Source of the DNA: Methanobacteriota archaeon
GTDB lineage: Archaea; Halobacteriota; Methanosarcinia; Methanosarcinales; Methanosarcinaceae
Reading direction: 5' to 3'
DNA length: 64,000 bases
Assembly: GCA_030054735.1 (NCBI GenBank)
Contig: JASGVX010000003.1
Location: forward strand, 1,532 to 65,531
Under the pieces are notes generated by a model that saw only the letters and a list, made by a program, of their open reading frames with translations, searched no databases and was not told the DNA's origin. The translations under genes were made by a program, and so were the position numbers. Below are positions 3,335 through 39,084 of this stretch, in pieces; the first letter of the stretch is position 1; the number at the start of each line of letters is the position of its first letter.

Positions 3335-3731
3335 AATTGAATAATTTGAAGTTAGATGGTGGGGCTAACCGCCCTGCTATCTAATTATTTATGGATAACA
3401 AATATATAATTTCAAGTATTTATGTTCCCTCTCTACTGTTGCTGACTATACTTATTGCATAATGAGGGAGGTTACAGAAGTAAAAGTGGAAATTAATTCT
3501 AAAGTCGTAACTCAAATTGCCAGGATGAACGAAGTTAAGGCCAGGATATATAAGGTTGATGGAGAAGAATTGTGAAAAATACTACTTTTGAGTGGAGATC
3601 TGAAGAAAGTCAGTCGTAGCCAGGAGCCTTTATTTTTCAATATCTTTGAAACTCCGGTATAAAGAAGAGAAAAGCAAGAAATATTAATGATAGATATTAA
3701 ACGGAGACTTGAGAAAAAGAAGGAGTAAAAA

Positions 3732-4190
3732 TCACCTTTGCTTTCTTGCTCTTGATTTTTCTTTTTGTCTTTCCTTCTGCTGGTTAAAAACAGAGGGCAG
3801 ATGGAGAGCATATGAACCTTCTTCCCTGATTGCCATAACGAGCTCTTTCCGCTCTAAAAGGGAATCCAGATTAAGTTCATAAGAGCCAGGGCCAAGAATC
3901 CTTACGGACTCCACCCTTTCCCCCTCAGTTTCATTTTCATATTCTGGCTGCTGCTCACTATCTTTTTCTTCGGATGCAAGAGCTTCGTCAATATTCCTGA
4001 CAACCTCATCCAGAGAGGCTTCAAGATCCAGTTTTTGTTCTTCCAGAGCAGGCGTCCCCTGGTTTTCCAAACCCTCTGGCTCTTTTTTCACATAGAGGAA
4101 CTTGTTCCAGCCACAGCTCGGGCAGCCGCTGAGGATTACAGAATCCCCGTCTTCAAAAATGGATCCGCATCTGGTACATCTATGGGGCAT
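3732..4190 (-). CDS. Zn-ribbon domain protein (DUF2072-like)
   Basis: MPHRCTRCG...GCPSCGWNKFLYV N-terminus; ESVRILGPGSYELNL. Confidence 0.8.
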   Translation of the reverse strand: MPHRCTRCGSIFEDGDSVILSGCPSCGWNKFLYVKKEPEGLENQGTPALEEQKLDLEASLDEVVRNIDEALASEEKDSEQQPEYENETEGERVESVRILGPGSYELNLDSLLERKELVMAIREEGSYALHLPSVFNQQKERQKEKSRARKQR

Positions 4191-4564
4191 GAGTTCACCG
4201 AAATCAATAATATGAACGTAATTGCTGCAGTTTGTAACCGTCTATAAGACGCTGTATATTAATTAGATTTATATCTTAAATTAATTTATTAAATTGGCCA
4301 CTTAGAGGGTAATTGAATTAGATATGAAATTGATTTTTATATAGAATAAACACGTATATCAGCATTTGATACATATTCAGTTATCTAAATAATATCTTAA
4401 ATAAGTACCTTTAATAAATATGTATATTCGTATTTACAGTTTTTTTATTTAATAAGTTTATATTAATATCAACCACTGGCTTTTTAGCACCCTTACCGGC
4501 TACAATCTTTTTGTTTGTAATATAAGGAAAATTATCAAGACTCAAGCAGGTAATAAAGTTTCTA

Positions 4565-5290
4565 TCATAAAAGTCTCCAGCACTTCTTCCCGTCAATAAG
4601 ATCAGACCTGGTCCTACCGACCCTATCCATCTCCTCCAGAACTTCTGGAAGCCTGCCGGGTTGAGTAATCTCAAAAACGATCGGATCGAGTGCATGATTT
4701 ACGTAAAGGCTGTGTTTAATATCTTCAAGACTCCAGAGCTTTCCAGAATCTTTTCTCATGCATTTTGTCAAAATACTTATCATATCTTCCATAAAATTCC
4801 AGGGATAGACGATCCATGCCCAATCCTCAAGCCGCTCTCCAATGTAATCAGGATCGATTTTCGAGCTCCCCATATATTGTAAAGAAGCGGTTCGAACCTC
4901 TTTCGGATTCTTGCTTTCTACATAAGCTTTAGCGCTGATCATACTTTCCCCTGTATCCACAACGTCGTCTACAATAAGAACTCTTTTGCCTTCGACCACA
5001 TCGTCTGAGAGAGGGTATCGTATATATGGTTCGCCAGTGTTAATGGCTGCATCCCCTATATAATGCTCGATTTTAAGACTGGAGAGGTCATCAAGACCCA
5101 GGAAATCACACAGCACACGTCCTGCAAACCAGCCTCCTCTGGCAAGTGCAATAATAACATCCGCTTCATACCCGGAGTTTTTGACTTCTCTTGAAATATT
5201 TCGGCACAGGTTGTAAATATAGTCCCAGTTCGTAAGCACACATCTAAACGATTCTATGTAAAACCCTCCCGGATCCGAAACCCGGTGCAT
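4565..5290 (-). CDS. purine-type phosphoribosyltransferase
   Basis: IIALARGG and VLIVDDVVDTGES PRPP-binding motif; WIVYPW. True start uncertain. Confidence 0.85.
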   Translation of the reverse strand: MHRVSDPGGFYIESFRCVLTNWDYIYNLCRNISREVKNSGYEADVIIALARGGWFAGRVLCDFLGLDDLSSLKIEHYIGDAAINTGEPYIRYPLSDDVVEGKRVLIVDDVVDTGESMISAKAYVESKNPKEVRTASLQYMGSSKIDPDYIGERLEDWAWIVYPWNFMEDMISILTKCMRKDSGKLWSLEDIKHSLYVNHALDPIVFEITQPGRLPEVLEEMDRVGRTRSDLIDGKKCWRLL

Positions 5291-5567
5291 TGATCAGAAA
5301 ATTATACTGTTTTAGGAGCACTCATGTCAAGGCTCCACATTCGAGATTATATAATTCAGCCATAGGCTTTAAGTTTTCTTATTTTGTAAGAACTTCTTTG
5401 AAATCGACTGAATAGTTTTGAAATCGGTTAAAAAGAAACAATTTAAACTGAATTAAGAACTTTACTGATAATTTACTGTGAGCAGAATTTCGAAAAAAAT
5501 CTTTAAATTAAAAACTTCTTTAAACTAAAGACTTATACTACTGCTTTATATCCTGAGTTCCCAAAAT

Positions 5568-8218: not shown

Positions 8219-8293
8219 AGCGGGGTAGGGTAGCCAGGAGATCCCGACGGGCTCATAACCCGTAGACCGATGGTTCGAATCCATCCCCCGCTA
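8219..8293 (+). tRNA. tRNA-Met (CAT), initiator
   Basis: AGCGGGG...CCCCGCTA; A1:U72 pair, GGG/CCC anticodon stem, CTCATAA loop, GGTTCGAATCC. Confidence 0.97.
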
Positions 8294-8361
8294 TAAGAGG
8301 AGCTTCAGATAACTCTTTTCCTGATGATAATTTTCTTTTTTAAAAGAATCACAAGCCCCGT

Positions 8362-8436
8362 AGCGGGGTAGGGTAGCCAGGAGATCCCGACGGGCTCATA
8401 ACCCGTAGACCGATGGTTCGAATCCATCCCCCGCTA
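8362..8436 (+). tRNA. tRNA-Met (CAT), initiator, second identical copy
   Basis: Identical 75-nt sequence 143 bp downstream. Confidence 0.97.
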
Positions 8437-8790
8437 TAGAAAACAATTTTCAGAAATTATTTTTTCGTAACTAAGGCTTTTAATACATCAGGCTTTGTTC
8501 TATACTTCGATTTTTCATATCCGAGCGGTTATTTATATTCGGAGCATTCAATCTTATCTAATTCAAATCCCATCTTAAATCCTGTTATACCTTCATAGCT
8601 TTTCAAGCATCAAAAACTAAAAGGCTTATTAAATAAAGATGGCTTCTTATTACAGGATAAAATAAATGCAAAAAAGATCACCTTCTTATAAAGGTAAAAA
8701 AAGCCAGAAAAAGCAACCTTGCACAAACTGATAAACTAAATTTAACTTATCTTTTTATCCATCCTCAAAATTAAGCAGGACGATTCTCAT

Positions 8791-22783: not shown

Positions 22784-23962
22784 TCAGAAGTCGGTCATGA
22801 TCCTGAACTGGTCAATTTCAGGCTTGTTTAAGCTGTTGATAAACTGTCCGGCTGCTTCCCGGATGTCCTTTGCTCCTGCAATGGCTCTTCCGACCACAAG
22901 GATATCAGCACCCTGACTAAGCGCTACAGGCACATTGTCGAGGCGGACTCCGCCCGCAACTGCAACAAGAGTCCTTGGAGCGATCTTCTTGATTTCAGCG
23001 ATATTGCCCCAGGCGTGTTCTGTGTTTTCAATGTCGATTCCGCGGTGGAGCTCAATTACATCGGGCATAGTTTTGAGCTGCTTTAAGACAGAAATCGGGT
23101 CGGGATGGTTAAGAGTATCCATAACTGCGTAGATGCCTGTCTTGTGGGCTTCCTCAATGAGCTTGTCAATGGTGCTGATAGGTGCAAGGGCTGATACTAC
23201 GATAGCATCACCTGCTGCATCTGCAACCATTCTGGCTTCAAGGTTCCCGGTGTCCAAGGTCTTTAAGTCAGCAACAATGAAGGCATCAGGCCTGACCTCT
23301 CTGATCTTCGAAACCACGTCCATGCCATAGCGCTTGACAAGGGGTGTGCCTGCTTCGATAATGACGTGGTCGCTCTTCGGGATCTGGGAGATAGCCGAAA
23401 GGACAAACTCGAGGTTCGGGTTGTCAAAGGCAATCTGCAGGTATGGTGGGTCCCAGAGCCTTGTGACTTTAAAGCCCATGATAGCGTGTGTTGACTTGTT
23501 GCTTTCCTCAAGCACGGTATCGATGTCCGGGAAGCCTTTTAGTGCTCTCTTGATTGCGAGCTTTGTGGCTCCGTAGTTATACCTGTAGATTTTATTGTAG
23601 TCCTGAGCATCAGGGTGGATAAAGACACTTGCTACGATAACAATGTCTTCAACCTGGTCCTTCGGGATCACGCCTTCTTCTACAGAATCTGCTACTGCTT
23701 TTGCAACAGCTGACTGGGCAGGCCCGAAAATCCTTGCTGCCTGATCCATATTCTTTACTGTAACCTTCGGGATAATAAGGGTCGAAGGCTTGGGCGGCAG
23801 GTTTGGCCTGATAACTGAAAGGAGAGGGGTGTGTCCGGCTGAGAGTTGTGTAAGGCCATTTGCGAAAGCCTGTCCTACAGGACCTTCCTTGTCTCCTATC
23901 ATCAAATCAACATGGGCAAGTTCTGAGCCCTGTCCCATTAATGCTTCTCCTATCTGAAACAT
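22784..23962 (-). CDS. fae-hps: bifunctional formaldehyde-activating enzyme / 3-hexulose-6-phosphate synthase
   Basis: Fae domain (IGEAL...AHVDL...GPAQ...YNYGAT) fused to an HPS domain (IEAGTPL, ADLKTLD, VAGG). Confidence 0.96.
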
Positions 23963-24239: not shown

Positions 24240-24863
24240 TTAAATGAGAATTTTAGGGCATATATCGTTCAGGACGCAAATTCCGCACCTCGGAGATACA
24301 GGCCGGCAGACATTTTGCCCGAATTTTACAAGCAAAATATTTACGTGCCTCCAGTATTTTTGCGGAAGGGCCTTTTTTAATTTTATTTCTGTCTCTTCAG
24401 GATTATTTGTCGCTACCAGCCCAAGCCTGTTAGATATCCTGTGTACATGTGTATCGACAGCAAGGGCGTCTTCTTTAAGGAATGCATGAGCAAGAACGCA
24501 GTTAGCTGTTTTCCTGCCAACTCCGGGAAGTTTCAAAAGAGCCTCCATCTCGTCCGGGACTCTGCCGTTGTATTCCTCCAGTAAAATTCTGGAGATTTCC
24601 TTTATCCTTCCAGCTTTGACTCTATAAAAACCAACATCTCTAATAAGCGCTTCAATCTCCTCAACATCAGCTTCGACCATTTCCTCAGGGGTTGAAAATC
24701 TTTCAAAAAGCTTCTCTGCTGCAGGATAGGTCACATCGTCCCGGGTCCTGTGCGACATGACAGTGGAGATTAATGCAAAAAAGGGCTCCCGTATGTCTAC
24801 AGTACATCCATCAGGATAAAGTTCGAAAAGCCTCTGCATGAGTTCATCAATATCCATGCCCAT
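24240..24863 (-). CDS. nth: endonuclease III
   Basis: HhH motif LPGVGRKTA, AVDTHVHR, CRPVSPRC..C......C Fe-S motif. Confidence 0.95.
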   Translation of the reverse strand: MGMDIDELMQRLFELYPDGCTVDIREPFFALISTVMSHRTRDDVTYPAAEKLFERFSTPEEMVEADVEEIEALIRDVGFYRVKAGRIKEISRILLEEYNGRVPDEMEALLKLPGVGRKTANCVLAHAFLKEDALAVDTHVHRISNRLGLVATNNPEETEIKLKKALPQKYWRHVNILLVKFGQNVCRPVSPRCGICVLNDICPKILI

Positions 24864-25044: not shown

Positions 25045-25116
25045 AGCCAAGGTCCGGATTCGAACCGGAATGGTATCGCTCTGCAGGCGATTGCGTAGCC
25101 GCTCCGCCACCTTGGC
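25045..25116 (-). tRNA. tRNA-Cys (GCA)
   Basis: Reverse strand GCCAAGG...CTGCAGA...GGTTCGAATCC...CCTTGGCT. Confidence 0.96.
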
Positions 25117-25185
25117 ACAAAATGGATTTGCTTAAAGCACTTTATTGAATATATAGTTTTGGTTAAATTACTTTTAAAAGAGAAA

Positions 25186-25257
25186 AGCCAAGATCCGGAT
25201 TCGAACCGGAATGGTATCGCTCTGCAGGCGATTGCGTAGCCGCTCCGCCATCTTGGC
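25186..25257 (-). tRNA. tRNA-Cys (GCA), second copy
   Basis: Same sequence but acceptor pair 7:66 is A:T instead of G:C. Confidence 0.96.
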
Positions 25258-26686: not shown

Positions 26687-27625
26687 TCATTTACGTTCTC
26701 CAAGGAAAACCATCACCCCTGCAGGTGAAGCTCTTTTGTAGATTTTCTCCAGTGATTCAAGCAGGTCTTCTTCACCGCACCAGAAGGGGAATTTTCCAAG
26801 CCTTTTCGGAAGAGCGGCTGGAACTGGAGGTATATGAGCCTCAATGGAGCAGATTTTTTCCTCTTCAGTGTATTCAGGGAGCCTTCCCCAGAAAACTTCA
26901 GGATCAAGGGGAAGAAGCTCAGGAGAAACTGGAGAGATTTCAGCTTCGAATGCAGTTCTGGTTTTATCATCAGGCCTTTCTGTAAGAACCCCCACTTCTG
27001 CTACCCGGTCTACAGTTTCCGGAACAAAGCCCTTTCCGATAATAGACATAAAATCGTCCATATCCACGCCCCTTAGCTTAAAGATAAGGAAGGGATCTCT
27101 ATCAAATTCTTCCCCAAGCAGGTAATAGACGGCTGCAATGTGCTTACATGGGTTTGACCAATCAGGACAGGAGCAGTCTGTTTCAAGGTCGTCGAGTGTT
27201 TCAGGAAAGAGAGAGAGTCCTATTTCCCTGAATGAAGAGTCGATATCTGCAGGCATCTCTCCTGCGAGGAGCTTTGCCGCAAAGATTGGTTTCAGAGCAA
27301 GTTTTTCTGCAAGGAGTTCCCATTCGGAGCCGGTCAGGGTCCTGACTTTGATCGTTACCGAATAGGGCTTGGGGTCCGAACCCTGGACTTTAGCCCTTAC
27401 AAATCCGGTCTCTATTTTTATAGAGGTTACCTGTCCTTTACGGGCATAGCTTTTTCCGCGGCTTAACCTGGCACCCAGATTAAAGCTTTCAAGGGTTTCA
27501 ATCCAGCGTTTTGCCCACCAGCTCTTGACAAAGCTTCCACGTTTGGATTGTGCCTTGATGCCTCCTTTAACCTCAATTGGCTTTGTGGGCTCATAATAAC
27601 CATAGCCGTTCCAGTAAGCTGCCAT
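26687..27625 (-). CDS. SWIM zinc-finger protein (SNF2 partner)
   Basis: CSCPDWSNPCKHIAA; RLSRGKSYARKGQV; DPFLIFKLRG. Confidence 0.92.
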   Translation of the reverse strand: MAAYWNGYGYYEPTKPIEVKGGIKAQSKRGSFVKSWWAKRWIETLESFNLGARLSRGKSYARKGQVTSIKIETGFVRAKVQGSDPKPYSVTIKVRTLTGSEWELLAEKLALKPIFAAKLLAGEMPADIDSSFREIGLSLFPETLDDLETDCSCPDWSNPCKHIAAVYYLLGEEFDRDPFLIFKLRGVDMDDFMSIIGKGFVPETVDRVAEVGVLTERPDDKTRTAFEAEISPVSPELLPLDPEVFWGRLPEYTEEEKICSIEAHIPPVPAALPKRLGKFPFWCGEEDLLESLEKIYKRASPAGVMVFLGERK

Positions 27626-27626
27626 T

Positions 27627-30600
27627 TTATTCACCTACCGCTTCTTCTCGAAGAGCAAAAATATCTTTCAGTTCATCATTGGAAAGTTCTGTCAGCCAGC
27701 CTTCCCCTGTTCCGACGACGTTCTCTGCGACCTCTACTTTACGCTCGATAATCTCATCTATTTTTTCTTCAAGTGTTCCTGCACAGATGAACTTATGCAC
27801 CCCAACGTTTTTCGTCTGGCCTATACGGAATGCCCTGTCTGTAGCCTGATTTTCAACAGCCGGGTTCCACCAGCGGTCAAAGTGGAAAACGTGATTGGCT
27901 CCAGTAAGGTTAAGCCCCGTACCTCCGGCTTTCAGGGAAAGGACAAAAATAGGCAGGTATTCTTTTCCCTCCTGGAAGCGCTCAATCATCCGGTCCCTCT
28001 GTTTTCTGGGAACTTCCCCGTGCAGGAAAAGGACTTCACAGCCGAAACTTGCCTGCAGGTGTTCTTTTAGCATTCTGCCCATCTCCGCAAACTGGGTGAA
28101 AACAAGGGCTTTTTCCCCATTTTCCAGGACTGTATCCAAAATTTCAGTAAGCCTTGCGACTTTTCCTGACCTGCCGGGTACAGCGGAGTTATCCTTCAAA
28201 AACTGTGCAGGATGATTACAGACCTGCTTTAACCTGGTAAGGGCAGACAGGATTATGCCTTTTCTCTGAATTCCTTCTTCAGCTTCTTCCATTGCATCTC
28301 CAATGTCTTCGAGGACTGCAGCATAGAGGGAAGCCTGTTCTTTTGTAAGTGTACAATAGGTTTTCATCTCTATTTTTTCCGGCAGGTCGGAGATGATCGA
28401 AGTATCTGTCTTCAAACGGCGCAGGATGAAGGGACCGGTAATTTCTTTTAGCCTCCTTGCAGCCTCAGGATCTCTTTCAGCCTGAATGGGGATAAAGAAA
28501 TTCCGCTTGAAACCTGCCTGGCTACCAAGGAAACCGGGGTTTAAAAACTCCATTATGGACCAGAGGTCGCCTACATTATTTTCAACCGGAGTCCCTGTAA
28601 GGGCTATGCGGTAATCAGCTTCCAGAGCCCTGGCTGCCTTTGCCTGTTTGGTTTCCGGGTTTTTGATATTCTGGGCTTCGTCAAGTACAACTCCGGCCCA
28701 GGAAACTCCTTTTAAAAACTCAAGATCGCGCTGCAAAAGGCCATAGCTTGAGATGACGATAGCATGACTCAGGGCTTCCGTTGTGAATTCCTCTTTCTTT
28801 TTCCGGCTGGTCCCGTGGTGAACCATCACCGAAAGTTCCGGGGTAAAGCGGGCAGCCTCTTTTTTCCAGTTGTTTATAACAGAGGTAGGACAGACAAGAA
28901 GAACCGGTTTTTGGTTTTTATGTCCATCAACTTTTTCAACCTGCTCTTTAACCTGTTCCATGTCGTGCTGGATAAGAGCTAAAGTCTGGACGGTTTTACC
29001 AAGCCCCATGTCGTCTGCAAGGCAGGCCCCTATGCCCCACTGTCTCAGGAAAGCAAGCCAGGAGTAACCACGGAACTGGTATGGACGAAGAGTTCCTGAA
29101 AATCCACTGGGAGCCGGAAGTTCTTCAAATCCGGATTTGTCCTTTAAGCGGCTGATTAATTCTCCGATCCAGCCGGCTGCATTAAGCCCTTCAACGTCCA
29201 GACCATTGGCTTTTTCAGAAGCTCCCACTGCCATTTTTAGAACATCGCGCAGACTTGCTTCTCCCTGGGGGTTTTTCTTCCAGAAATCAAGAGCAGCACG
29301 AATTTCCGCATCGTTTACCTCTACCCACTGCCCGCGGAATTTCACAAGCGGAGCTTTGAGTTTTGCAAGAGCCTGCAGTTCTCTGACTGTTAATACCCGG
29401 TCACCAAGAGCGATTTCCCAGTCAAAGCTTACTATTTTTTCGAGGGTTAGCCCGCTTCCGGCCTGCAACTCTTTCTTGCCCTTAACTTTTGCCTGGGCTT
29501 TCAGATGGGTTTTTGTGCCTTTACGTGTCCACCAGCCAGGGAGAAGCAGCCCAAAGCCGGCCTGGCTTAAGTTTGCTGCGCTTTCGGTCAGGAAGCGGTA
29601 AGCCTCTTTCGTATCAAGGGAATATCCGGAGGGGTTGGGAGCCTCAAGACTGAAAGCAATTTCTGCACTGATACTGGAAGCCTGCCCAAGGGAAGATAAT
29701 AGAAATTGGCGAATATTTTTTACATCGTATTTTTTCAACGGGCTGCCCTTCTTTGGCTTCCATGCCTCTTTTACAGGGATCAGAAGGCTTGGGTCTTCGT
29801 AGGACTGAAGCAGGTAGCGGACATACCAGAGCCCTTCGGGAACTTCTATATCAGCTATCCCTTCCCTGCTTTTTTTAGTATCTCTTCTCCCGGCTTCGGG
29901 TTCTTCGAGCTCTTCTTCTACAGCCGGTTCTTCCAGCCTGAAACAGAACCTGAAGGGAGAAGTGGTAAGGACCTTGAGGGGACGCTGCCATTCACGGGAC
30001 CGGGACGCAAGTTGAAGAAGTTCTTTTTCGTCTCCATAGATCAGCCCTTCAGGGCTTTTAAGAGCAGAAACCCAGGCGTCATGGATGCTATCAAATGATT
30101 TTCTTTTGTGCGTCTCTTTTGAAAGCTTTTTTTCTCCAATCTCGGAGCGGACTATCTGGTCAAGAGCATCTTCAATAAACTGCCTTGCTACTAAAGCTGC
30201 AGGCATTTCCGGCGGCATGGAAGAGGCTTCAGGAGCAAGAGCCCTTGCAGCAGGAGGCATTTGCTTTGCCAGCTTTGCCAGCTCTCCTGCATCTTCTCCG
30301 GAAAATACGGGTTCCCAGAAAGCCCTGTACTCTTCTTCCCCGACTCTGACCCCGGGAAGGTATTTCTGTCCTGCTACCAGCGAGCCTGCAAATTTCAGGG
30401 CATCTGCCCACCAGAGGAGGTCATTTCCCGAGATTATGCCGGGAGCAAGAACCCGTTTCCCCATACAGGTGCAGAGGAGAAGAATAGCTTCTTCAGTTTC
30501 CAGAGGATATGCATGAACAGTCCAGGGAGCCAGTGAAGGTTCTGCTTTTGAATCAGGGATTTCAGCAACAAGAGGGCTTGAAGGGAGAGGAATCCCGCCT

Positions 30601-30827
30601 ACCGTAGGGACCCAGACGTTGATTTTCTCTGCCATTTTCCGGCCATTAATGCCCAGCAGCTCAAGAGTGGAAGACAGGTTTTCAAATCCCGAATCATAAG
30701 GATAAGGCTTTACAATAGGATTTTTAGGCTTTCTCCCACGCCGAACAAGCGGAATTTCATTTTCAGACGGACTTTCGCCCCATAAGAAGAACTGTTTTCC
30801 GACTCTTCCTGCATGAAGAATTATCAT
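27627..30827 (-). CDS. SNF2-family helicase with DUF3670-type N-terminal region
   Basis: LRPYQ, LADDMGLGKT, LDEAQNIKN, LTGTPVEN, SLKAGGTGLN, DRWWNPAVENQATDRA. Confidence 0.95.
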   Translation of the reverse strand: MIILHAGRVGKQFFLWGESPSENEIPLVRRGRKPKNPIVKPYPYDSGFENLSSTLELLGINGRKMAEKINVWVPTVGGIPLPSSPLVAEIPDSKAEPSLAPWTVHAYPLETEEAILLLCTCMGKRVLAPGIISGNDLLWWADALKFAGSLVAGQKYLPGVRVGEEEYRAFWEPVFSGEDAGELAKLAKQMPPAARALAPEASSMPPEMPAALVARQFIEDALDQIVRSEIGEKKLSKETHKRKSFDSIHDAWVSALKSPEGLIYGDEKELLQLASRSREWQRPLKVLTTSPFRFCFRLEEPAVEEELEEPEAGRRDTKKSREGIADIEVPEGLWYVRYLLQSYEDPSLLIPVKEAWKPKKGSPLKKYDVKNIRQFLLSSLGQASSISAEIAFSLEAPNPSGYSLDTKEAYRFLTESAANLSQAGFGLLLPGWWTRKGTKTHLKAQAKVKGKKELQAGSGLTLEKIVSFDWEIALGDRVLTVRELQALAKLKAPLVKFRGQWVEVNDAEIRAALDFWKKNPQGEASLRDVLKMAVGASEKANGLDVEGLNAAGWIGELISRLKDKSGFEELPAPSGFSGTLRPYQFRGYSWLAFLRQWGIGACLADDMGLGKTVQTLALIQHDMEQVKEQVEKVDGHKNQKPVLLVCPTSVINNWKKEAARFTPELSVMVHHGTSRKKKEEFTTEALSHAIVISSYGLLQRDLEFLKGVSWAGVVLDEAQNIKNPETKQAKAARALEADYRIALTGTPVENNVGDLWSIMEFLNPGFLGSQAGFKRNFFIPIQAERDPEAARRLKEITGPFILRRLKTDTSIISDLPEKIEMKTYCTLTKEQASLYAAVLEDIGDAMEEAEEGIQRKGIILSALTRLKQVCNHPAQFLKDNSAVPGRSGKVARLTEILDTVLENGEKALVFTQFAEMGRMLKEHLQASFGCEVLFLHGEVPRKQRDRMIERFQEGKEYLPIFVLSLKAGGTGLNLTGANHVFHFDRWWNPAVENQATDRAFRIGQTKNVGVHKFICAGTLEEKIDEIIERKVEVAENVVGTGEGWLTELSNDELKDIFALREEAVGE

Positions 30828-31099
30828 ATATTTGTATAAAGAAGGAAGATATATTAAAAATGATAGGGGACAAGCCATTTCAAGGGTTTGATTTTACAAT
30901 AGATATTCCGTAGAATTTCCGGCTTATTATTGATGCGTTTCTTTTATCTGGTTATTGAAATTGAAAGTTCGGCAGTGTAATATAGGGTGAGTTGAAAATA
31001 CTTTAAAAAACCGAAGGTTTTGATTTTAGAAAGCATTTTCTAGAGGGATTATATAGTAATTACCCCCAAAATCACTTATTAAATCTTAAAGGTGATGAA

Positions 31100-31447
31100 A
31101 TGTCTAAAGCCGTCATGATAAAAGCAGGAGAAACGATATTTTTTGCCGAAACCGACGAATCAATTGAGATACCATATCTCGGGTCGCTTCCAGATGGGCC
31201 AAAAGGGATGCAAGCCACGGCAGGCACAGAAAAGATAACTCAAGAAATGACAACTATTCAAGACATAATCGCAGCATGCAGTGAAGGGGTGTTCAACGCC
31301 ATCAAGAGTAAAAGCCCTAAACCTGAGAGAGTTACCGTCGATTTCGGAATCAAATTTGCGGGGGAAGGCGGCTTTCCGATGTTGGCAAAAGCATCTGGTG
31401 AAGCAAATTTAAATATCTCCATCGAATGGAAGACAAGTGAATCTTAA
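31100..31447 (+). CDS. Trypco1 / CU044_2847-like trypsin-co-occurring protein
   Basis: KPERVTVDFGIKFAGEGG...AKASGEANLNISIEW matches the recalled family consensus; a trypsin-like start follows. Confidence 0.75.
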   Translation: MSKAVMIKAGETIFFAETDESIEIPYLGSLPDGPKGMQATAGTEKITQEMTTIQDIIAACSEGVFNAIKSKSPKPERVTVDFGIKFAGEGGFPMLAKASGEANLNISIEWKTSES

Positions 31448-31606: not shown

Positions 31607-31720
31607 GACTTACGCAGTTGAATTGAAAAACACGAGCGGAAGTGACTTAACGGTATAAACTCAAATAATATTGACGAGCCTGCATCTGTCTGATTTTACA
31701 TTTCAACTGCGTAAGTCCTA
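31604..31720. mobile_element. 117-bp MITE, copy 1
   Basis: Terminal inverted repeats TAGGACTTACGCAGTTGAA / TTCAACTGCGTAAGTCCTA; near-identical copy at 58555-58671. Confidence 0.85.
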
Positions 31721-31749
31721 TAAGAGTCAAAATTAATTTTCTAATTTCC

Positions 31750-34533
31750 TCAATTCATTTTTCTAATTAGCAGTTTCCTCACAACTTTTCTCTTTTCACC
31801 TTTTTCGAGAGTTTCATTTTCTGTAGCTTCGAAGAGCTCAGTCCATGCCTTGAAACGGTAATTGCTGCCCGCTCCAAGGTCCCTGATCCTTATCTCAAAG
31901 GGCTTTTCTCTAGTAGCTTCCTTTTGCCCTGCGAGTTTTTGGTGGAATGTTTTTGCTGCGGCTTTTTCCGGAGAAGGAGCTGAGACAACTCCAATCAATC
32001 CTCCATTTTCATCCGTGGCAATGAAGGTTTTTTCCTTTTTCTTCTGCTCTGCCTGAGCTTCCTGTTTTATGCTTTCCCGCCTGAGCTGTCTTCTGACCCT
32101 GTCAAGGGCACCTCCTGCATCCTTTTTTTCTTGTGGGTCTGTCCCTGGGGGTCTGGATTCAGAAAGATGTTTTTCTTTTTTTTCGGGAGGAATGTAAGGA
32201 TCTTTTCCCAGGAGTTCATGCAGGAGCATAATTGCCGCATGCTTATCAAGAGGCTCGTTGTTGTTCCCGCACTTTGGGGACTGGATACAGCCAGGACAGC
32301 CGCTTTCACAGGGGCAGCTTTCAATAGCCTTTAAGGTGCCTTCCAGGACCTCTTCTATCAGGTCATAGCCTTTTTCGGCATACCCAACTCCCCCCCTGTG
32401 CCCGTCATAGATGAAAATCCCGCTTTTACCACCGAGGTCGGGATGGGACGGAGTTGAAACCCCTCCTACGTCACTCCTGTCCACAAGCAGGTGCAGAGGG
32501 TACATGGAAATCATTGCATGCTCAACAGCATGAATCCCGCCAGCAAAATCCAGCTTATTGTCCCCTATCAGCTCCTGCATCCTGTCAGGAAGCTTAATCC
32601 AGAGCGCAACTGTCTGGAGGGTTATAGGAGGCATTTCAATATCATGAGCGCTCATTGTCTCATTGTTGTAGGTCCGGATTTTCCTGTAGCCTATAATTCT
32701 ATCTGTTACCTCCACATCCCCAAGCCCAAGCTCTACCTCAGGAGCATGCAGGAGAGGCTTTACCGCATAAGTCTCCTGCACCAGTACGGACGAATCTATC
32801 ATGGGTTTTGTATAATAGCTATCATACGTCTTTACGGCATGAATTTCCTTTTTCTCATGGTCGATCCTGTTTATGTAGAAAGGTTCCCCCCTGTGCATGT
32901 AGACTGCACCCGGGTGGCACTCCCGGAACGCCAGAGCCTCTTCGATTTCTTTTTCTATGGGAAAGCTCCTTTCTCCTTCAAAAGCAAGCAGAGAGTAAGT
33001 ATTATTGTCAATTCCCCGAAGGGAGACATGTTTATAAGGGAAAGGGTCAGTAGAATATTTCAGGTCGCTGCCTGCGAGCAGCCCTTCTGCTTCAAGGAGC
33101 TCTACAACTCTTGAATACTCCATGCCAAAGAACTTTTCATCTGATTCTCTGAGAGGGACTTCTTTTGCTGCACAGAGCAGGTGCCCTGTAAGGATATAGG
33201 GGTTTTTAGGGTTGAGCACTGCATTTTCGCTGCTTCTTGCAAAGAAGTCGTTGGGGTTTCGCATATAATACTGGTCAAGAGCATTTGTCCCGGCTACCAT
33301 AAAGACAAGGCTTTCATTTCCGCTCCTGCCCGCCCTTCCTGCCTGCTGCCTCGCGTTCATAACCGTCCCCGGATAGCCGTCAAGAATACAGGCATCAAGC
33401 CCACCGATGTCTATTCCGAGTTCAAGGGCGTTTGTGGAAATAATACCCCTGAGCTCTCCAGAATTCATTTTCTTTTCTATATCTTCCCTTTCCCTGTCAA
33501 AATAGCCGCTTCTGTATGAGCAGATCGAAGAAGAGAGCGCACGTTCTCTCAAAAGTTCCCTGCAACTCTTATACATTCTCTCCACCCCCTGCCTTGACCT
33601 GGTAAAAACAAGGGTCTGGAGCCCGGCCTGGACTGCCCGGACAAAAAGAGCCGAGGTTTCGGAAAAGCTGCTTTTCCTTACTGTGCATCCTCTCCCATTC
33701 AGGTAAAGAGGTGGATTCCAGAATACAAATCTCTGGGGGCCCTGTGATGAACCGTTATTCTCAACCACCTCTACTTTCCTTCCCAGCAGAGTTTCAGTAT
33801 GCTCTTTTGGGTTCCCTATGGTCGCCGAACAACAGATGAACTGTGGGGAAGATCCATAGTATTCCACAACCCTGAGGAGCCTTCTGAGCACGTTTGCCAT
33901 ATTGCTCCCTATAACTCCCCTGTAATAGTGGCTCTCGTCAATAACAATGAATTTAAGGTTTGAAAAAAAGCGCCTCCAGAGGTGGTGCCAGGCAAGAAAA
34001 CTCATGTGCACCATCTCAGGGTTTGTGAAAACAATATTTGTCTGTCCTTCCCTGATTTCTCTCTTCTGGGATGCAGTCAAAGCTCCAGTATAACGGGCTA
34101 TGCCTGCCCCGGAGTTCAGTGACTTTTCAAATTCAAGGAAAGCTTTTAACTGGTCGTTTACAAGGGCATTGAGAGGAGAGATATAAAGTGAAGTAGCCTC
34201 AGGGTCATTCATAATGGCTTCAAAAATAGGGACCATGTAAGTAAGGGACTTTCCGCTTGCTGTGCTTGTGCAGAGCACCAGGTCTTTTCCTTCACGGATT
34301 TTTTCTATTGCTTCAACTTGATGGGAATAAAGAGCTTCAATCCCAATACCTGAAAGGGCAGCCCTTATCTGCGCCCTCAGTTCAAGAGGTGCATAAATGG
34401 CATCTCTTGCAGGAGTTTCTTCAATATGAACTATCTGGTTTTCATAACGGCTGCTAGCTTTAATTTCATTCAGCAGGCGGGAAATTTCCATTTTTCTACT
34501 CCATTTTATTTCATCCACTTTATTATACGCCAC
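31750..34533 (-). CDS. Hrq1/SftH/MrfA-like SF2 helicase with DUF1998 and a C-terminal MC1-like domain
   Basis: TASGKSL, IDESH, SATIGNP, STNALELGIDIG, QQAGRAGR; C-C-C-C DUF1998 cluster (CPCESGCPGCIQSPKC). Start may be ATG 34491. Confidence 0.92.
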   Translation of the reverse strand: MAYNKVDEIKWSRKMEISRLLNEIKASSRYENQIVHIEETPARDAIYAPLELRAQIRAALSGIGIEALYSHQVEAIEKIREGKDLVLCTSTASGKSLTYMVPIFEAIMNDPEATSLYISPLNALVNDQLKAFLEFEKSLNSGAGIARYTGALTASQKREIREGQTNIVFTNPEMVHMSFLAWHHLWRRFFSNLKFIVIDESHYYRGVIGSNMANVLRRLLRVVEYYGSSPQFICCSATIGNPKEHTETLLGRKVEVVENNGSSQGPQRFVFWNPPLYLNGRGCTVRKSSFSETSALFVRAVQAGLQTLVFTRSRQGVERMYKSCRELLRERALSSSICSYRSGYFDREREDIEKKMNSGELRGIISTNALELGIDIGGLDACILDGYPGTVMNARQQAGRAGRSGNESLVFMVAGTNALDQYYMRNPNDFFARSSENAVLNPKNPYILTGHLLCAAKEVPLRESDEKFFGMEYSRVVELLEAEGLLAGSDLKYSTDPFPYKHVSLRGIDNNTYSLLAFEGERSFPIEKEIEEALAFRECHPGAVYMHRGEPFYINRIDHEKKEIHAVKTYDSYYTKPMIDSSVLVQETYAVKPLLHAPEVELGLGDVEVTDRIIGYRKIRTYNNETMSAHDIEMPPITLQTVALWIKLPDRMQELIGDNKLDFAGGIHAVEHAMISMYPLHLLVDRSDVGGVSTPSHPDLGGKSGIFIYDGHRGGVGYAEKGYDLIEEVLEGTLKAIESCPCESGCPGCIQSPKCGNNNEPLDKHAAIMLLHELLGKDPYIPPEKKEKHLSESRPPGTDPQEKKDAGGALDRVRRQLRRESIKQEAQAEQKKKEKTFIATDENGGLIGVVSAPSPEKAAAKTFHQKLAGQKEATREKPFEIRIRDLGAGSNYRFKAWTELFEATENETLEKGEKRKVVRKLLIRKMN

Positions 34534-35789: not shown

Positions 35790-37622
35790 CTAATTCTTTT
35801 TAATTTTTGCGCTCTCTTCGCTCAGCCCTGCCCATATTACCCTATACCCCAGGTGTTCAAGCACAGGATAATAGAGACTGCTATCAATCCCGAATTCCTC
35901 AAAGACTTTAACCGCATCGGCGTAAGTCTTCACAGCTCCTGGTTTTTCAAGCTCAAGATTTATTCGCTCAAGTAGCTGCCTGTGGACTAGATAATTTTCA
36001 AGAAGCACATAATCTCTGTATTTTCCGGACTCTTCATACCCTTCAATTTCTTCTTTCACTCCGAATTTGTCAGGTTTCCGAATTTCTGCAAATCTCTCTG
36101 CAAGCTCTTCTTTTAAAGCTTCAGGCATAACTCCTCTGGCGTCTGCGATTTCTTTAAGGCTGACCAGTTCCCCAGAAAGAGATATCTCTGTGCCACAGAG
36201 CTTTAACCTGTCTTCTGCAAGCCTTTTTTCCTCGTATTTTCTAAGCACCTGTGTGACTTCATTTGCCGGAATCTTCCTGTCAAAAAAAATCACGTCCTGT
36301 GCAGGAAAATCTTTTTCAGAGCACTTGAGTTTTCTATTAATCAGGAGAATAACAGGTTCTTTTACATCTTTGAGTTTCTCAGTTTTCTTTTTAAGGTAGT
36401 CAGGAGTCCAGAAGCCAACAATCTCTGCATAAACTTTTATCCCATTCTTCTGCATGGAAAAGTCTGGAACAAAAGCGAAGCGGCCTGCTTTTAAAATCGT
36501 AGGCTCCCTTTTTATCTCCCAGCCCCCGAAACTGAAGTTTGCAAACTGCTGCTCATAAGTGCTGTCGAAAGCTTCACTTTCAGTATCTGTTTCTGCGTCC
36601 TGAGTTCCAGATTCCCTGTCTATAAATTCAGGATCTTTTTCGATTCCTGTTCTGGTCCCGGCTTTGTATTCTTCCTGTCCTTCCGCAAGATGAAAGTCGA
36701 GAGAAATCCCATCAGGATCGTCACCAGGTGCTCTGGATATAAACCTGAAAGCTTCTTCAGAGTCGTCAAGGGCAAATTCGAGGACTCGCTTTCCCTGGTA
36801 ACCTTTGTGCAGAATACCTGCCTTCAATCTCCAGCCCTTTGATTTCAGGAGAATCGGAAAGAGTTTGGCAAAAGAATTACCATACCGTTCCGACATTCTG
36901 AAAAGTGATGCAGGGCCATCAAGGTGGAGGTGAACGCTTTTTAACCTTTCAGGGTCTTTGTTTTCATCCATTCTTTTACTATCTCTATTTCCTCCTTCTA
37001 TTTCCTGCTTTCCGCCTTCTATTTCCGGTGTATCCTCAAGGGAATACATAAGTCCAGACTTGAGGATTTTCCAGAGGACTCTCTGAAAATCTCCTCTAAT
37101 CCAGATATCCAGGTCAACAGCACGGAAAAGCAGGGTCTGGGTCAGGGAAATATTATACTGCCTTAAGAGTTCTGCAGGAGCTGGAGGATTGAATTCTTTG
37201 AGGACCTGGTTTTCCTCAAGGTCTGCCCACAAAGATTTTTCAAGGTCAGGAACTGAAATTGAAAGATTTCTTGCGGCTATTTGCAGCGACTTTTGCCTTT
37301 CGGCAGGAAAAAGGGCCATTCCCTCACAGGCTTCAAAGACAGCTTCCCTGGCTCTGGAAGGGTCAACGGCTGAAGAGGTCTCGACCAAAGCCTTCCTTCC
37401 CAGAAGCTGTGAAAGACCCCGTATAAAGCGGTAGTTCATCTCTTCATAGCCTTCAAGTTCTGCAAGCAGGTCGCCGTAAGTTTTTCCGACATGCTGCTTG
37501 AATGTCTCTATAAGAAGCTCTGCAAGCTCAAGGTTTTCCGAGTCAAAAACTGCATATGCAGGCCGGATCTTACCCCTGGAGATATGGGTTACAAGGAGGT
37601 CAGATGTCAGCATGAGGGGCAC
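35790..37622 (-). CDS. DUF790 / Bax1-like endonuclease (XPB partner)
   Basis: LTSDLL, YNISLTQTLLF, GPASLF...RYG, FVPDF...EIVGFWTPDYL; overlaps the XPB gene end. Confidence 0.88.
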   Translation of the reverse strand: MPLMLTSDLLVTHISRGKIRPAYAVFDSENLELAELLIETFKQHVGKTYGDLLAELEGYEEMNYRFIRGLSQLLGRKALVETSSAVDPSRAREAVFEACEGMALFPAERQKSLQIAARNLSISVPDLEKSLWADLEENQVLKEFNPPAPAELLRQYNISLTQTLLFRAVDLDIWIRGDFQRVLWKILKSGLMYSLEDTPEIEGGKQEIEGGNRDSKRMDENKDPERLKSVHLHLDGPASLFRMSERYGNSFAKLFPILLKSKGWRLKAGILHKGYQGKRVLEFALDDSEEAFRFISRAPGDDPDGISLDFHLAEGQEEYKAGTRTGIEKDPEFIDRESGTQDAETDTESEAFDSTYEQQFANFSFGGWEIKREPTILKAGRFAFVPDFSMQKNGIKVYAEIVGFWTPDYLKKKTEKLKDVKEPVILLINRKLKCSEKDFPAQDVIFFDRKIPANEVTQVLRKYEEKRLAEDRLKLCGTEISLSGELVSLKEIADARGVMPEALKEELAERFAEIRKPDKFGVKEEIEGYEESGKYRDYVLLENYLVHRQLLERINLELEKPGAVKTYADAVKVFEEFGIDSSLYYPVLEHLGYRVIWAGLSEESAKIKKN

Positions 37623-39084
37623 CTTTCCCGCTTTCAGGGCTTACTTTTCCTGTCCCCTGATTTTTTATTCCTGTCTTTTCTTTTTCTGCTTTTTTCCGGG
37701 GACTTCCTTCTGGACTTTTTCTGGAAGAGAAAGCCTCTTTTCTTCTCTTTGCAGTTCCCATTTCAGTGGTTTCTTCAGCAATAATTTCATAAAGCATAGC
37801 TTCCTTTCCTTCTTTTTTCCTCAGGATCCTTCCAAGGCGCTGGACATATGCCCGTTTGCTTCCTGTCCCGCTTGCTATAATTCCTACATTTGCTTCCGGG
37901 ACATCGATACCTTCGTCAAGCACCTTTGAGGTAACTACAGCCCTGTACCTGCCCTGCCTGAACTTTTCGAGAATGGAATTTCTTTCTTTTGGAGGAGTCC
38001 TGTAAGTGATCGCAGGAATAAAAAAGGCATTGGAAATCCGGTGCACAAGCCGGTTGTGTTCCGTGAAGATAAATACTCTATCTTCTCTGTGCTGCACAAG
38101 GATCTCTCGTAATTTTTCTATTTTAGAATAACTGTTAAAGGCAATATCTCTTGCTGTATTTCTTGCAAGGAGGGCTTTTCTGGCTTCAGGGTCCCTCCCA
38201 CTTTTCATGACCAGCTTTTGAAAGTCCTGCGGGCTTCTCATTATCATGCCGGTTTTTCTGATGTAGTCAAGGAATATGGCATAATTCTGATCATACTCTT
38301 TTTGTTCTTTGCCTGTGAGCGTCACATTAATCCGTTTTATCGTATAAGGGGAAAGGTGCTTCCCTGCAAGTTCCGATACCTTTTTTTCATAAACCTTACC
38401 CCCTGCAAGCTGGTTGAGTTCAGTATGCAGCCCGTCTTCCCTTTCATATGTGGCTGTAAGCCCGAGCCTGCAAGGCGCTGCGGAAAACTCGGCAATGCTC
38501 CTGTAAGCGGCTGCAGGAAGGTGATGAACTTCATCAAAAATTATGAGGCCGAACCTGTTCCCAAGGGTTTCGGCGTGAATATAGGCAGAGTCATAGGTGG
38601 AAACCGTTATTGGAAGAATTTTCTTTTCCCCGCCCCCAAGCTTTCCGACTTCCATTGAAAAGGCTTCCTCAAGCTCTTTCTTCCACTGTTCAAGGAGGTC
38701 CAGGGTTGGGACAAGTACAAGGGCAGGGGTGTTGCAACTCGAAATTGCCCGGATACCGGTTAAAGTCTTTCCGCTTCCTGTAGGCAGGACAAGAACTCCC
38801 CATTTTTCATTTTCCCCCCAGGAAATAAGAGCTTCTGCCTGATAATCTCTTAATTTCAACTTCTTTCCCGAAGCTTCGTAAGCCGCTGTAAGGTCAGGAC
38901 AGGGAAGAAGGTCAAGGACAGCATCTTCAAAATCAACCCCAGAATTTTTCAAATAACTGATAGTATCTTTGTAGTACATTGCAGGAGCCCTGAAACTTCC
39001 GCTCCTTTCATCCCATACTGAATTCGGAACCCTGATATTTCCTTTTATGAGAATAGTTCCCTGCTTGAAGCTGATTTTTACCAT
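37600..39084 (-). CDS. xpb: XPB/Rad25-family helicase
   Basis: LRDYQ, PTGSGKT, FDEVHH, GLTATYER, VLDEGIDVP, QRLGRILR. Confidence 0.92.
   Translation of the reverse strand: MVKISFKQGTILIKGNIRVPNSVWDERSGSFRAPAMYYKDTISYLKNSGVDFEDAVLDLLPCPDLTAAYEASGKKLKLRDYQAEALISWGENEKWGVLVLPTGSGKTLTGIRAISSCNTPALVLVPTLDLLEQWKKELEEAFSMEVGKLGGGEKKILPITVSTYDSAYIHAETLGNRFGLIIFDEVHHLPAAAYRSIAEFSAAPCRLGLTATYEREDGLHTELNQLAGGKVYEKKVSELAGKHLSPYTIKRINVTLTGKEQKEYDQNYAIFLDYIRKTGMIMRSPQDFQKLVMKSGRDPEARKALLARNTARDIAFNSYSKIEKLREILVQHREDRVFIFTEHNRLVHRISNAFFIPAITYRTPPKERNSILEKFRQGRYRAVVTSKVLDEGIDVPEANVGIIASGTGSKRAYVQRLGRILRKKEGKEAMLYEIIAEETTEMGTAKRRKEAFSSRKSPEGSPRKKAEKEKTGIKNQGTGKVSPESGKGAPHADI

Follow-up and report, generated by a model that had tools for sequence, protein, structure and literature searches.

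We analysed a 64,000-nucleotide stretch of a Methanosarcinaceae genome (GenBank assembly GCA_030054735.1, contig JASGVX010000003.1, positions 1,532 to 65,531; referred to here as the window, with positions counted from its first letter) and found that an open reading frame on its minus strand (31750..34533) encodes a helicase whose C-terminal tail resembles the archaeal nucleoid protein MC1. On sequence and model evidence, the tail is homologous to MC1 and is a genuine MC1-fold domain, and the protein that carries it is a complete superfamily 2 (SF2) DExH helicase of the MrfA/YprA/Hrq1 family. Comparison of orthologues shows that the fusion dates to the common ancestor of Methanosarcina or earlier and has been kept by purifying selection. 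The most likely role of the tail is that of an exchangeable module for targeting: a tether to DNA that does not bend it or, alternatively, a domain that binds protein. We regard this as a new domain architecture made from known parts, not as a new kind of system. A full-text literature search found no description of a fusion between MC1 and an MrfA/YprA/Hrq1 helicase, in agreement with an earlier reading of this DNA made without database searches (the sequence-only reading), which had proposed the fusion and knew of no account of it.

Homology of the tail to MC1

The last 93 residues of the predicted protein (KTFIATDENGGLIGVVSAPSPEKAAAK...KVVRKLLIRKMN, followed by the stop codon at 31750-31752; 31750-32031, minus strand) form the C terminus of the reading frame. 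The sequence-only reading had aligned them by eye with MC1, which has the same length, and database searches bore this out. When the last 116 residues were searched with phmmer against all PDB sequences, MC1 (1t23_A) was the sole match (E 2.6e-6), with tail residues 1-87 paired with MC1 residues 4-87. A BLASTP comparison of the tail with MC1 gave 33% identity over 80 residues (E 9e-12). The Smith-Waterman score of the same pair was 107, compared with 26 ± 5 for shuffled tails, and none of 5000 shuffles reached this value. Profile comparison by hhalign of 39 non-redundant orthologous tails with 26 bona fide MC1 proteins gave a probability of 96.1% (E 3.6e-9, columns 2-74), and an independent run gave 95% (E 4e-8).

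The Pfam search that the sequence-only reading had proposed gave a divided answer. At E ≤ 0.01, 24 of the 39 tails matched the MC1 family (PF05854) and no other, the best of them at 4.7e-5, but the score of the window protein stayed below the MC1 gathering cut-off of 23 bits, both for the isolated tail (19.8-20 bits) and for the whole protein (14.6 bits). Orthologues scored 12.5-13.2 bits or had no match. Because the scores lie below the gathering cut-off, the orthologues carry no MC1 domain in precomputed annotation. The MC1 fold is thus present here as a cryptic enzyme domain, conserved across a genetically tractable genus and invisible to annotation at Pfam thresholds.

We also searched 1.84 billion representative proteins with a hidden Markov model (HMM) built from the helicase tails alone. 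Besides fragments of the same helicases, the model retrieved an MC1 protein of 96 residues (P0271, E 6.4e-4) and a 469-residue protein in which MC1 is repeated four times (P0267, E 7.5e-7), confirmed as MC1 by Pfam (43.8 bits) and scored by the model above canonical MC1. The tandem MC1-like repeats of P0267, encoded on a 5.1-kb Logan contig, share with the tail a longer helix that ends in K-x-F; the source of this protein may be a giant virus or a eukaryote. Three giant proteins in the same list, one twitchin-like (P0265), one with Ig domains (P0268) and one with FN3-like repeats (P0272), were rejected as β-repeat false positives.

Structure prediction points to the same family. AlphaFold2, run on an alignment of tails only, modelled the tail with a mean predicted local distance difference test score (pLDDT) of 80.5, with strands at tail residues 2-6, 12-17, 45-51, 57-68 and 83-92 and one helix (21-33); residues 70-80 form a disordered loop (pLDDT < 50). 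The order of these elements is the same as in the nuclear magnetic resonance (NMR) topology of MC1 (β1 4-9, β2 15-21, helix 25-34, β3 43-49, β4 54-66, arm 67-77, β5 78-90; PMC3928310) and in an AlphaFold2 control model of real MC1. As modelled, the MC1-like domain (residues 835-927; 31753..32031) therefore has the MC1 pseudo-barrel fold, β1-β2-α-β3-β4-arm-β5. In a Foldseek search of BFVD, the top match was annotated as a chromosomal protein MC1 domain-containing protein of Faunusvirus (A0A3G5A176; template modelling (TM) scores 0.68/0.66, probability 1.00, E 9.8e-3). Three more named MC1-domain proteins stood at ranks 10, 17 and 29, and the MC1 matches had TM scores of 0.59-0.68.

By contrast, Foldseek found no match for the tail model in the PDB at E ≤ 0.001, and 1T23 was not listed. 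This negative carries little weight because an AlphaFold2 model of a true MC1 protein, with 82% identity to 1T23, reached that entry at a TM score of only 0.46 (root-mean-square deviation 8.1 Å); the NMR entry 1T23 is a poor Foldseek target. The sequence-only reading had made its assignment depend on profile or structural similarity to MC1, and both were found: the first in the hhalign comparison, the second in the order of the strands and the BFVD matches but not in the PDB.

MC1 is known as an unfused nucleoid protein in Methanosarcinales, Methanomicrobiales and Halobacteria. The MC1 of M. thermophila (PF05854; 1T23, 2KHL and 2NBJ) shares with the tail its length of 93 residues, the order of its secondary structure, its fold core and a basic β5 face with Ile89. 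It is, however, a free and abundant monomer, whereas the tail is fused to a helicase of 830 residues. Outside archaea, MC1 is known from giant viruses only, as divergent copies that in some cases lie inside larger proteins (10.1101/2024.02.22.580433). The giant-virus proteins, such as Mimivirus gp275 (10.1101/2024.02.22.580433) and Faunusvirus A0A3G5A176, resemble the tail in being divergent MC1 folds within larger or multi-domain proteins, about 30% identical to archaeal MC1; unlike the tail, they are architectural proteins for genome packaging and not enzyme fusions. The ancestor of the tail could be the host's mc1 gene or a divergent lineage of MC1; the sequences are too short and too divergent for a tree.

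The helicase and the conservation of its tail

The open reading frame encodes 927 residues if the GTG at 34533 is the start and 913 if translation begins at the ATG at 34491. The ATG is the likely start, as it is in the orthologues and in the stored product (913 residues); residue numbers given here for the domains are those of the 927-residue form. Four Pfam domains, all above their cut-offs, follow one another in the order expected of the Hrq1/DUF1998 helicase that the sequence-only reading had named: a DEAD/DExH RecA1 domain (PF00270, E 1.1e-30; residues 70-242, 33808..34326), a Helicase_C RecA2 domain (PF00271, E 2e-16; residues 302-405, 33319..33630), an HRQ1-type winged-helix domain (WHD_HRQ1, PF22982, E 4.2e-15; residues 441-508, 33010..33213) and the MrfA Zn-binding domain (MZB, formerly DUF1998; PF09369, E 8.9e-24; residues 670-750, 32284..32526), all on the minus strand. 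A Walker A motif (ASGKS) begins at residue 92, the DESH motif at residue 199 and a Zn-binding Cys cluster (CPCESGCPGC...KC) at residue 740. The closest solved relative is B. subtilis YprA/MrfA (6znp; E 2.1e-148, 499 bits), which aligns through chain residues 11-732 with residues 6-738 of the 913-residue form.

The domain order, the DExH motif and the Zn-binding Cys cluster are common to the window protein, B. subtilis MrfA/YprA (6ZNP, 6ZNQ and 6ZNS; PMC7797055), yeast Hrq1 and M. smegmatis SftH (PMC3424565). By analogy with this family alone, the window protein would be a 3'-5' DNA helicase with a role in the repair of crosslinks such as those made by mitomycin C (PMC7797055, PMC3424565). MrfA stops shortly past MZB, whereas the window protein has about 175 more residues, made up of a linker, a basic helix and the MC1-like domain. 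The linker, rich in Pro, Lys and Glu (residues 751-834, 32032..32283), was delimited by the YprA alignment and by the tails of orthologues. Within it lies the conserved basic helix ALDRVRRQLRRE (residues 809-820, 32074..32109).

Members of the YprA family fall into a repair or housekeeping branch and a defence branch, as drawn in 10.1101/2025.09.15.676423, in which neither MC1 nor Methanosarcina is mentioned. Judged by sequence, the window helicase belongs to the repair or housekeeping branch, because defence models match it far more weakly than MrfA does and because the genes that flank it in the window were not found beside it in other species. The PADLOC defence models for BrxH, DruE, DpdF and DrmA matched the helicase core only, and only in part (best E 4.8e-44), and a defence-type YprA helicase (DISARM DrmA, Dpd, Druantia DruE or ARMADA) was rejected on this comparison. 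The protein did not reach the curated cut-off of the DECH_helic model TIGR03817, an NCBIfam hypothetical equivalog (721.4 against 874.1 bits, residues 34-775).

To follow the fusion across lineages, we surveyed one genome per GTDB species. All 32 loci found were in Methanosarcina or in unclassified Methanosarcinaceae or Methanosarcinales, and in 28 of the 32 species-level genomes helicase and tail formed a single in-frame tblastn segment. The fusion suggested by the sequence-only reading is therefore real and conserved. The Methanosarcina orthologues, of about 912 residues, all align with 98% of the query and have the tail. Two metagenomic orthologues with 67% identity (P0098 and P0099) keep a diverged tail with a longer arm. 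The organism of the window is a Methanosarcina that occurs in anaerobic digesters, and its helicase is 93% identical to that of the metagenome-assembled genome (MAG) UBA10923 and 87-88% identical to that of M. siciliae. In metatranscriptomes of anaerobic digesters, contigs of low depth match the gene in part, with 31691-31897 among the stretches covered, and have no mismatches; they show presence and little more.

Across the 39 tails, 9 alignment columns were invariant and 17 more were conserved in at least 90% of sequences. Ratios of nonsynonymous to synonymous substitution (dN/dS), taken as pairwise Nei-Gojobori medians over 26 complete species-level genes, were 0.06 for the helicase core, 0.17 for the linker, 0.12 for the body of the MC1-like domain, 0.22 for β5 and 0.63 for the arm, all of them approximate since synonymous divergence is near saturation (proportion of synonymous differences ~0.55-0.6).

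In one metagenomic Methanosarcinaceae lineage (loci L033-L035, ~2600-5309), the helicase is broken into at least five open reading frame fragments with 53-61% identity to the window protein. Several neighbouring genes (UPF0014, ABC_tran) also look split, which suggests a genome rich in pseudogenes. A family of short proteins of 78-102 residues (P0016-P0021) had the appearance of free MC1-like genes and was rejected as such: the 102-residue member (P0020) is the last piece of the split helicase in this pseudogenised lineage, and the other short calls may be contig-end or internal-Met calls.

Outside Methanosarcina, the position of the MC1-like domain is filled differently. The linker and a helix of the form ALxRVRxQLRR follow MZB in the archaeal orthologues (Methanosarcina, Methanolobus and an 850-residue group) whatever module comes next, and in the orthologues P0100-P0141 the slot holds C-terminal modules that differ between lineages. 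Methanolobus has TPR repeats, P0118 an HTH_40 domain (PF14493), P0106 and P0115 a short HTH-like segment, and the 850-residue group, which includes a Methanomicrobiales MAG, a coiled coil (EEKKILDKIKQIEE). Two of these alternative modules, HTH_40 of P0118 among them, look DNA-binding. Because sister lineages fill the same position with TPR, HTH_40 or a coiled coil, the slot appears from these sequences to be a module-swapping position for targeting or adaptor domains. With MC1-like, TPR, HTH and coiled-coil occupants, it offers a handle on the targets of uncharacterised archaeal MrfA-like repair helicases.

Candidate roles of the MC1-like domain

We mapped tail residues onto 1T23 numbering through a merged alignment of tails and MC1 proteins. 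The fold core is retained (Phe6, Gly13, Gly17, Val18, Pro24, Ala27, Ala28, Lys30, Pro42, Gly51, Phe58, Trp61 and Val84), as is the strand Ile45-Arg-Leu-Arg-Glu49, with Asp in place of Glu49. The basic β5 face is also retained, with Lys81, Lys85 (as Arg or Lys), Lys86 (90%) and Ile89 (77%), together with Arg90 and Lys91; position 88 is Ile or Leu in the tails and Arg or Lys in MC1. A Lys-rich segment, QKKKEK, lies directly upstream of the domain.

The other DNA contacts have gone. MC1 proteins are described as having an invariant segment from Pro24 to Lys30; Arg25 within it contacts DNA phosphates, and its mutation to Ala or Gln lowers affinity more than 100-fold (PMC3928310). In the tails, Pro24-Arg25-Gln-Ala-Ala-Leu-Lys30 has become Pro-Glu-Lys-Ala-Ala-Ala-Lys, so that Glu occupies the essential Arg25 position in 95% of them (Glu856 in the window protein, tail residue 22; 31966..31968), and the helix is five residues longer than that of MC1. 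Further DNA-contacting residues are replaced as well: Lys22 by Pro, Lys53 by Gly, Lys54 by Ser and Arg71 by Glu. The tip of the MC1 arm LP5 (Pro72-Ala-Trp74-Met75-Pro76) is replaced in the window protein by TENETLEKGEK (residues 904-914, 31792..31824), an acidic loop predicted to be disordered. Among 71 tail arms, length varied from 11 to 30 residues, mean net charge was -2.7 and Trp was absent from all, whereas the 112 MC1 arms all had 16 residues and a Trp, with a net charge of +1.8 and Trp-Met in 111. The net charge of the whole domain averages +4 in the tails (+6 in the window) and +10 in MC1; the isoelectric point of the tails is about 9.2-9.8.

In MC1, the arm residues Pro72, Trp74 and Met75 insert into the minor groove; Trp74 and Met75 are needed for bending and for recognition of bent DNA, the mutations Trp74Ala and Met75Ala abolish recognition and strongly cut bending, and Ile89Ala costs about 13-fold (PMC3928310). 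Since two of the three DNA-contact regions of MC1 are gone and the arm is unconstrained, we infer from the sequences that the tail should neither bend DNA nor select bent DNA in the manner of MC1. The suggestion of the sequence-only reading that the helicase carries a DNA-bending copy of the protein, recognising bent or four-way DNA, is not supported by this comparison; its remark that the Pro-Ala-Trp-Met arm is not retained is correct. With fold kept and both Arg25 and the bending arm removed, the tail is a natural experiment that helps to part the structural from the functional features of MC1.

We favour a role as a targeting module that tethers the helicase to DNA with low specificity and without bending it, and we give this reading about an even chance of being right. 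The MC1-like domain would no longer wrap or sharply bend DNA; it would act as a tethered accessory module, like the C-terminal HRDC or HTH domains of other repair helicases. Low-specificity contact with the duplex or the minor groove, made through the β5 face and the flanking Lys-rich linker, would hold or recruit the 3'-5' helicase on its DNA substrate in MC1-organised chromatin. Such a tether seems the likeliest role because the basic β5 face, the upstream QKKKEK and an overall basic charge are all retained. A divergent MC1 domain (~30% identity) within the larger Mimivirus protein gp275 still binds DNA and bends it, and Lys126 of that protein was chosen for mutation by comparison with MC1 (10.1101/2024.02.22.580433); our guess is that Lys126 occupies the position of Arg25.

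RecQ carries an HRDC domain at its C terminus. That domain and the HTH_40 of P0118 are, like the tail, small auxiliary domains on a flexible linker at the C terminus of an SF2 repair helicase. The tail differs from them in fold and origin, its module coming from the lineage's own family of nucleoid-associated proteins.

Several points weigh against a DNA tether. Reversal of the charge at Arg25 should hurt DNA binding, the net charge of the tails is under half that of MC1 (+4 against +10) with an acidic arm, and the Methanolobus slot holds TPR, a protein-binding module, so that the slot may serve to recruit partners and not to contact DNA. The missing PDB match and the near-saturated synonymous sites described above also count on this side.

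A possible but clearly less probable alternative is that the MC1 fold now serves protein interaction or regulation. Its binding partner might be, for example, a nuclease, RPA or PCNA, or else MC1-coated chromatin, or its acidic arm might act as an autoinhibitory DNA mimic in the DNA-binding groove of the helicase. The replacement of Arg25, Lys22, Lys53, Lys54 and Arg71 and the negative arm are consistent with such a role, and the 95% conservation of Glu22 itself suggests a newly selected function at that position. The TPR repeats of Methanolobus also fit, and MrfB, the partner of MrfA in B. subtilis, carries a TPR domain. However, the near-neutral arm of 11-30 residues is hard to square with a specific DNA mimic or docking arm, the domain retains a net basic charge and a conserved β5 rich in Lys and Arg, and none of the genes flanking the helicase in the window is kept beside it in other species.

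A more ambitious form of targeting, which we consider unlikely, is that the Methanosarcina lineage adapted its own nucleoid-protein fold into a chromatin-interface module of a crosslink-repair helicase, one that would read MC1, compete with it, displace it or fill MC1-type sites without bending. That the tail targets MC1-coated chromatin, as the sequence-only reading had also imagined, is speculation. Were the chromatin interface real, helicase loading would be coupled to the MC1-organised nucleoid, the tail would be the first archaeal nucleoid-protein fold to serve as an enzyme-targeting domain, and the genus, whose two canonical mc1 genes are jointly essential, would have in the helicase a third, hidden gene product of the MC1 family. 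A recent chromatin study of M. acetivorans, which used PF05854, counted only mc1a and mc1b and mentioned no helicase; it tested sensitivity to mitomycin C (10.1101/2025.11.24.690127).

We doubt still more that the tail works as MC1 does, bending DNA and guiding the helicase by that mechanism to DNA that is bent, four-way or damaged. MC1 favours four-way junctions and minicircles (PMC3928310), the tail shares its ancestry and fold, and the β5 contacts Lys85, Lys86 and Ile89 are retained. Yet the positions whose mutation cripples MC1 are those that the tails have lost, with Glu at Arg25 and no Trp in any arm, and the arm that is invariant in MC1 evolves at a dN/dS of 0.63 in the tails.

It is improbable that the tail is the decaying and now functionless remnant of an old fusion. 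Its dN/dS is higher than that of the helicase core (0.17 against 0.06), its arm is near-neutral and its Pfam score has fallen under the family threshold, as decay would predict; against this, the body has a dN/dS of 0.12, 26 columns of the 39-tail alignment are invariant or at least 90% conserved, the reading frame is intact in all 26 complete species-level genes, and P0098 and P0099 still retain the domain at 67% identity. Finally, we give almost no credence to a chance or compositional similarity, or to an assembly or annotation artefact joining two genes: the tail is rich in Lys and Glu and scores under the gathering cut-off, but composition-corrected E-values are significant, no shuffled tail reached the score, the matches fall at hydrophobic, Gly, Pro and Trp core positions, and the same in-frame fusion recurs in independent assemblies of 28 species and in mismatch-free metatranscriptome contigs.

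Neighbouring genes in the window

A classic XPB-Bax1 pair (35790-39084) shares the strand of the MrfA-like helicase and lies about 1.2 kb upstream of it. It consists of an archaeal XPB helicase (37600-39084, minus strand; Pfam XPB_DRD, ResIII and ERCC3_RAD25_C) and a DUF790/Bax1-type nuclease gene (35790-37622, minus strand) that overlaps it by 23 nucleotides. Downstream, a SNF2 helicase with DUF3670 (27627-30878, minus strand) overlaps a SWIM zinc-finger protein (26687-27634, minus strand); the SNF2 protein matches the PADLOC models ZorD and DpdE at E ~1e-132. A small Trypco1 open reading frame (31100-31447, plus strand; PF19493, E 1.6e-18) is convergent with the helicase and lies under the deepest metatranscriptome contig of the region, with a depth of 17 compared with 2-4 for the helicase.

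None of these flanking genes (SNF2, SWIM, Trypco1, Bax1 and XPB) was found within a few kb of the helicase in at least 26 other species, whose neighbours were not compared with each other. An operon or defence island formed by the XPB-Bax1, SNF2-SWIM and Trypco1 neighbours was considered and rejected, as other Methanosarcina species have none of them next to the helicase. The SNF2-SWIM pair, absent downstream of the helicase in those at least 26 species, may be a strain-specific insertion.

Genes for DNA repair are abundant in this region. An endonuclease III gene (24240-24863, minus strand) and a Fae-Hps fusion (22784-23962, minus strand), in which a formaldehyde-activating enzyme is joined to an OMPdecase/HUMPS domain, lie near both helicase clusters. 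Additionally, the window holds two tandem tRNA pairs, tRNA-Met(CAT) at 8219-8437 (plus strand) and tRNA-Cys(GCA) at 25045-25257 (minus strand), in each of which the two copies score nearly equally against the Rfam tRNA model.

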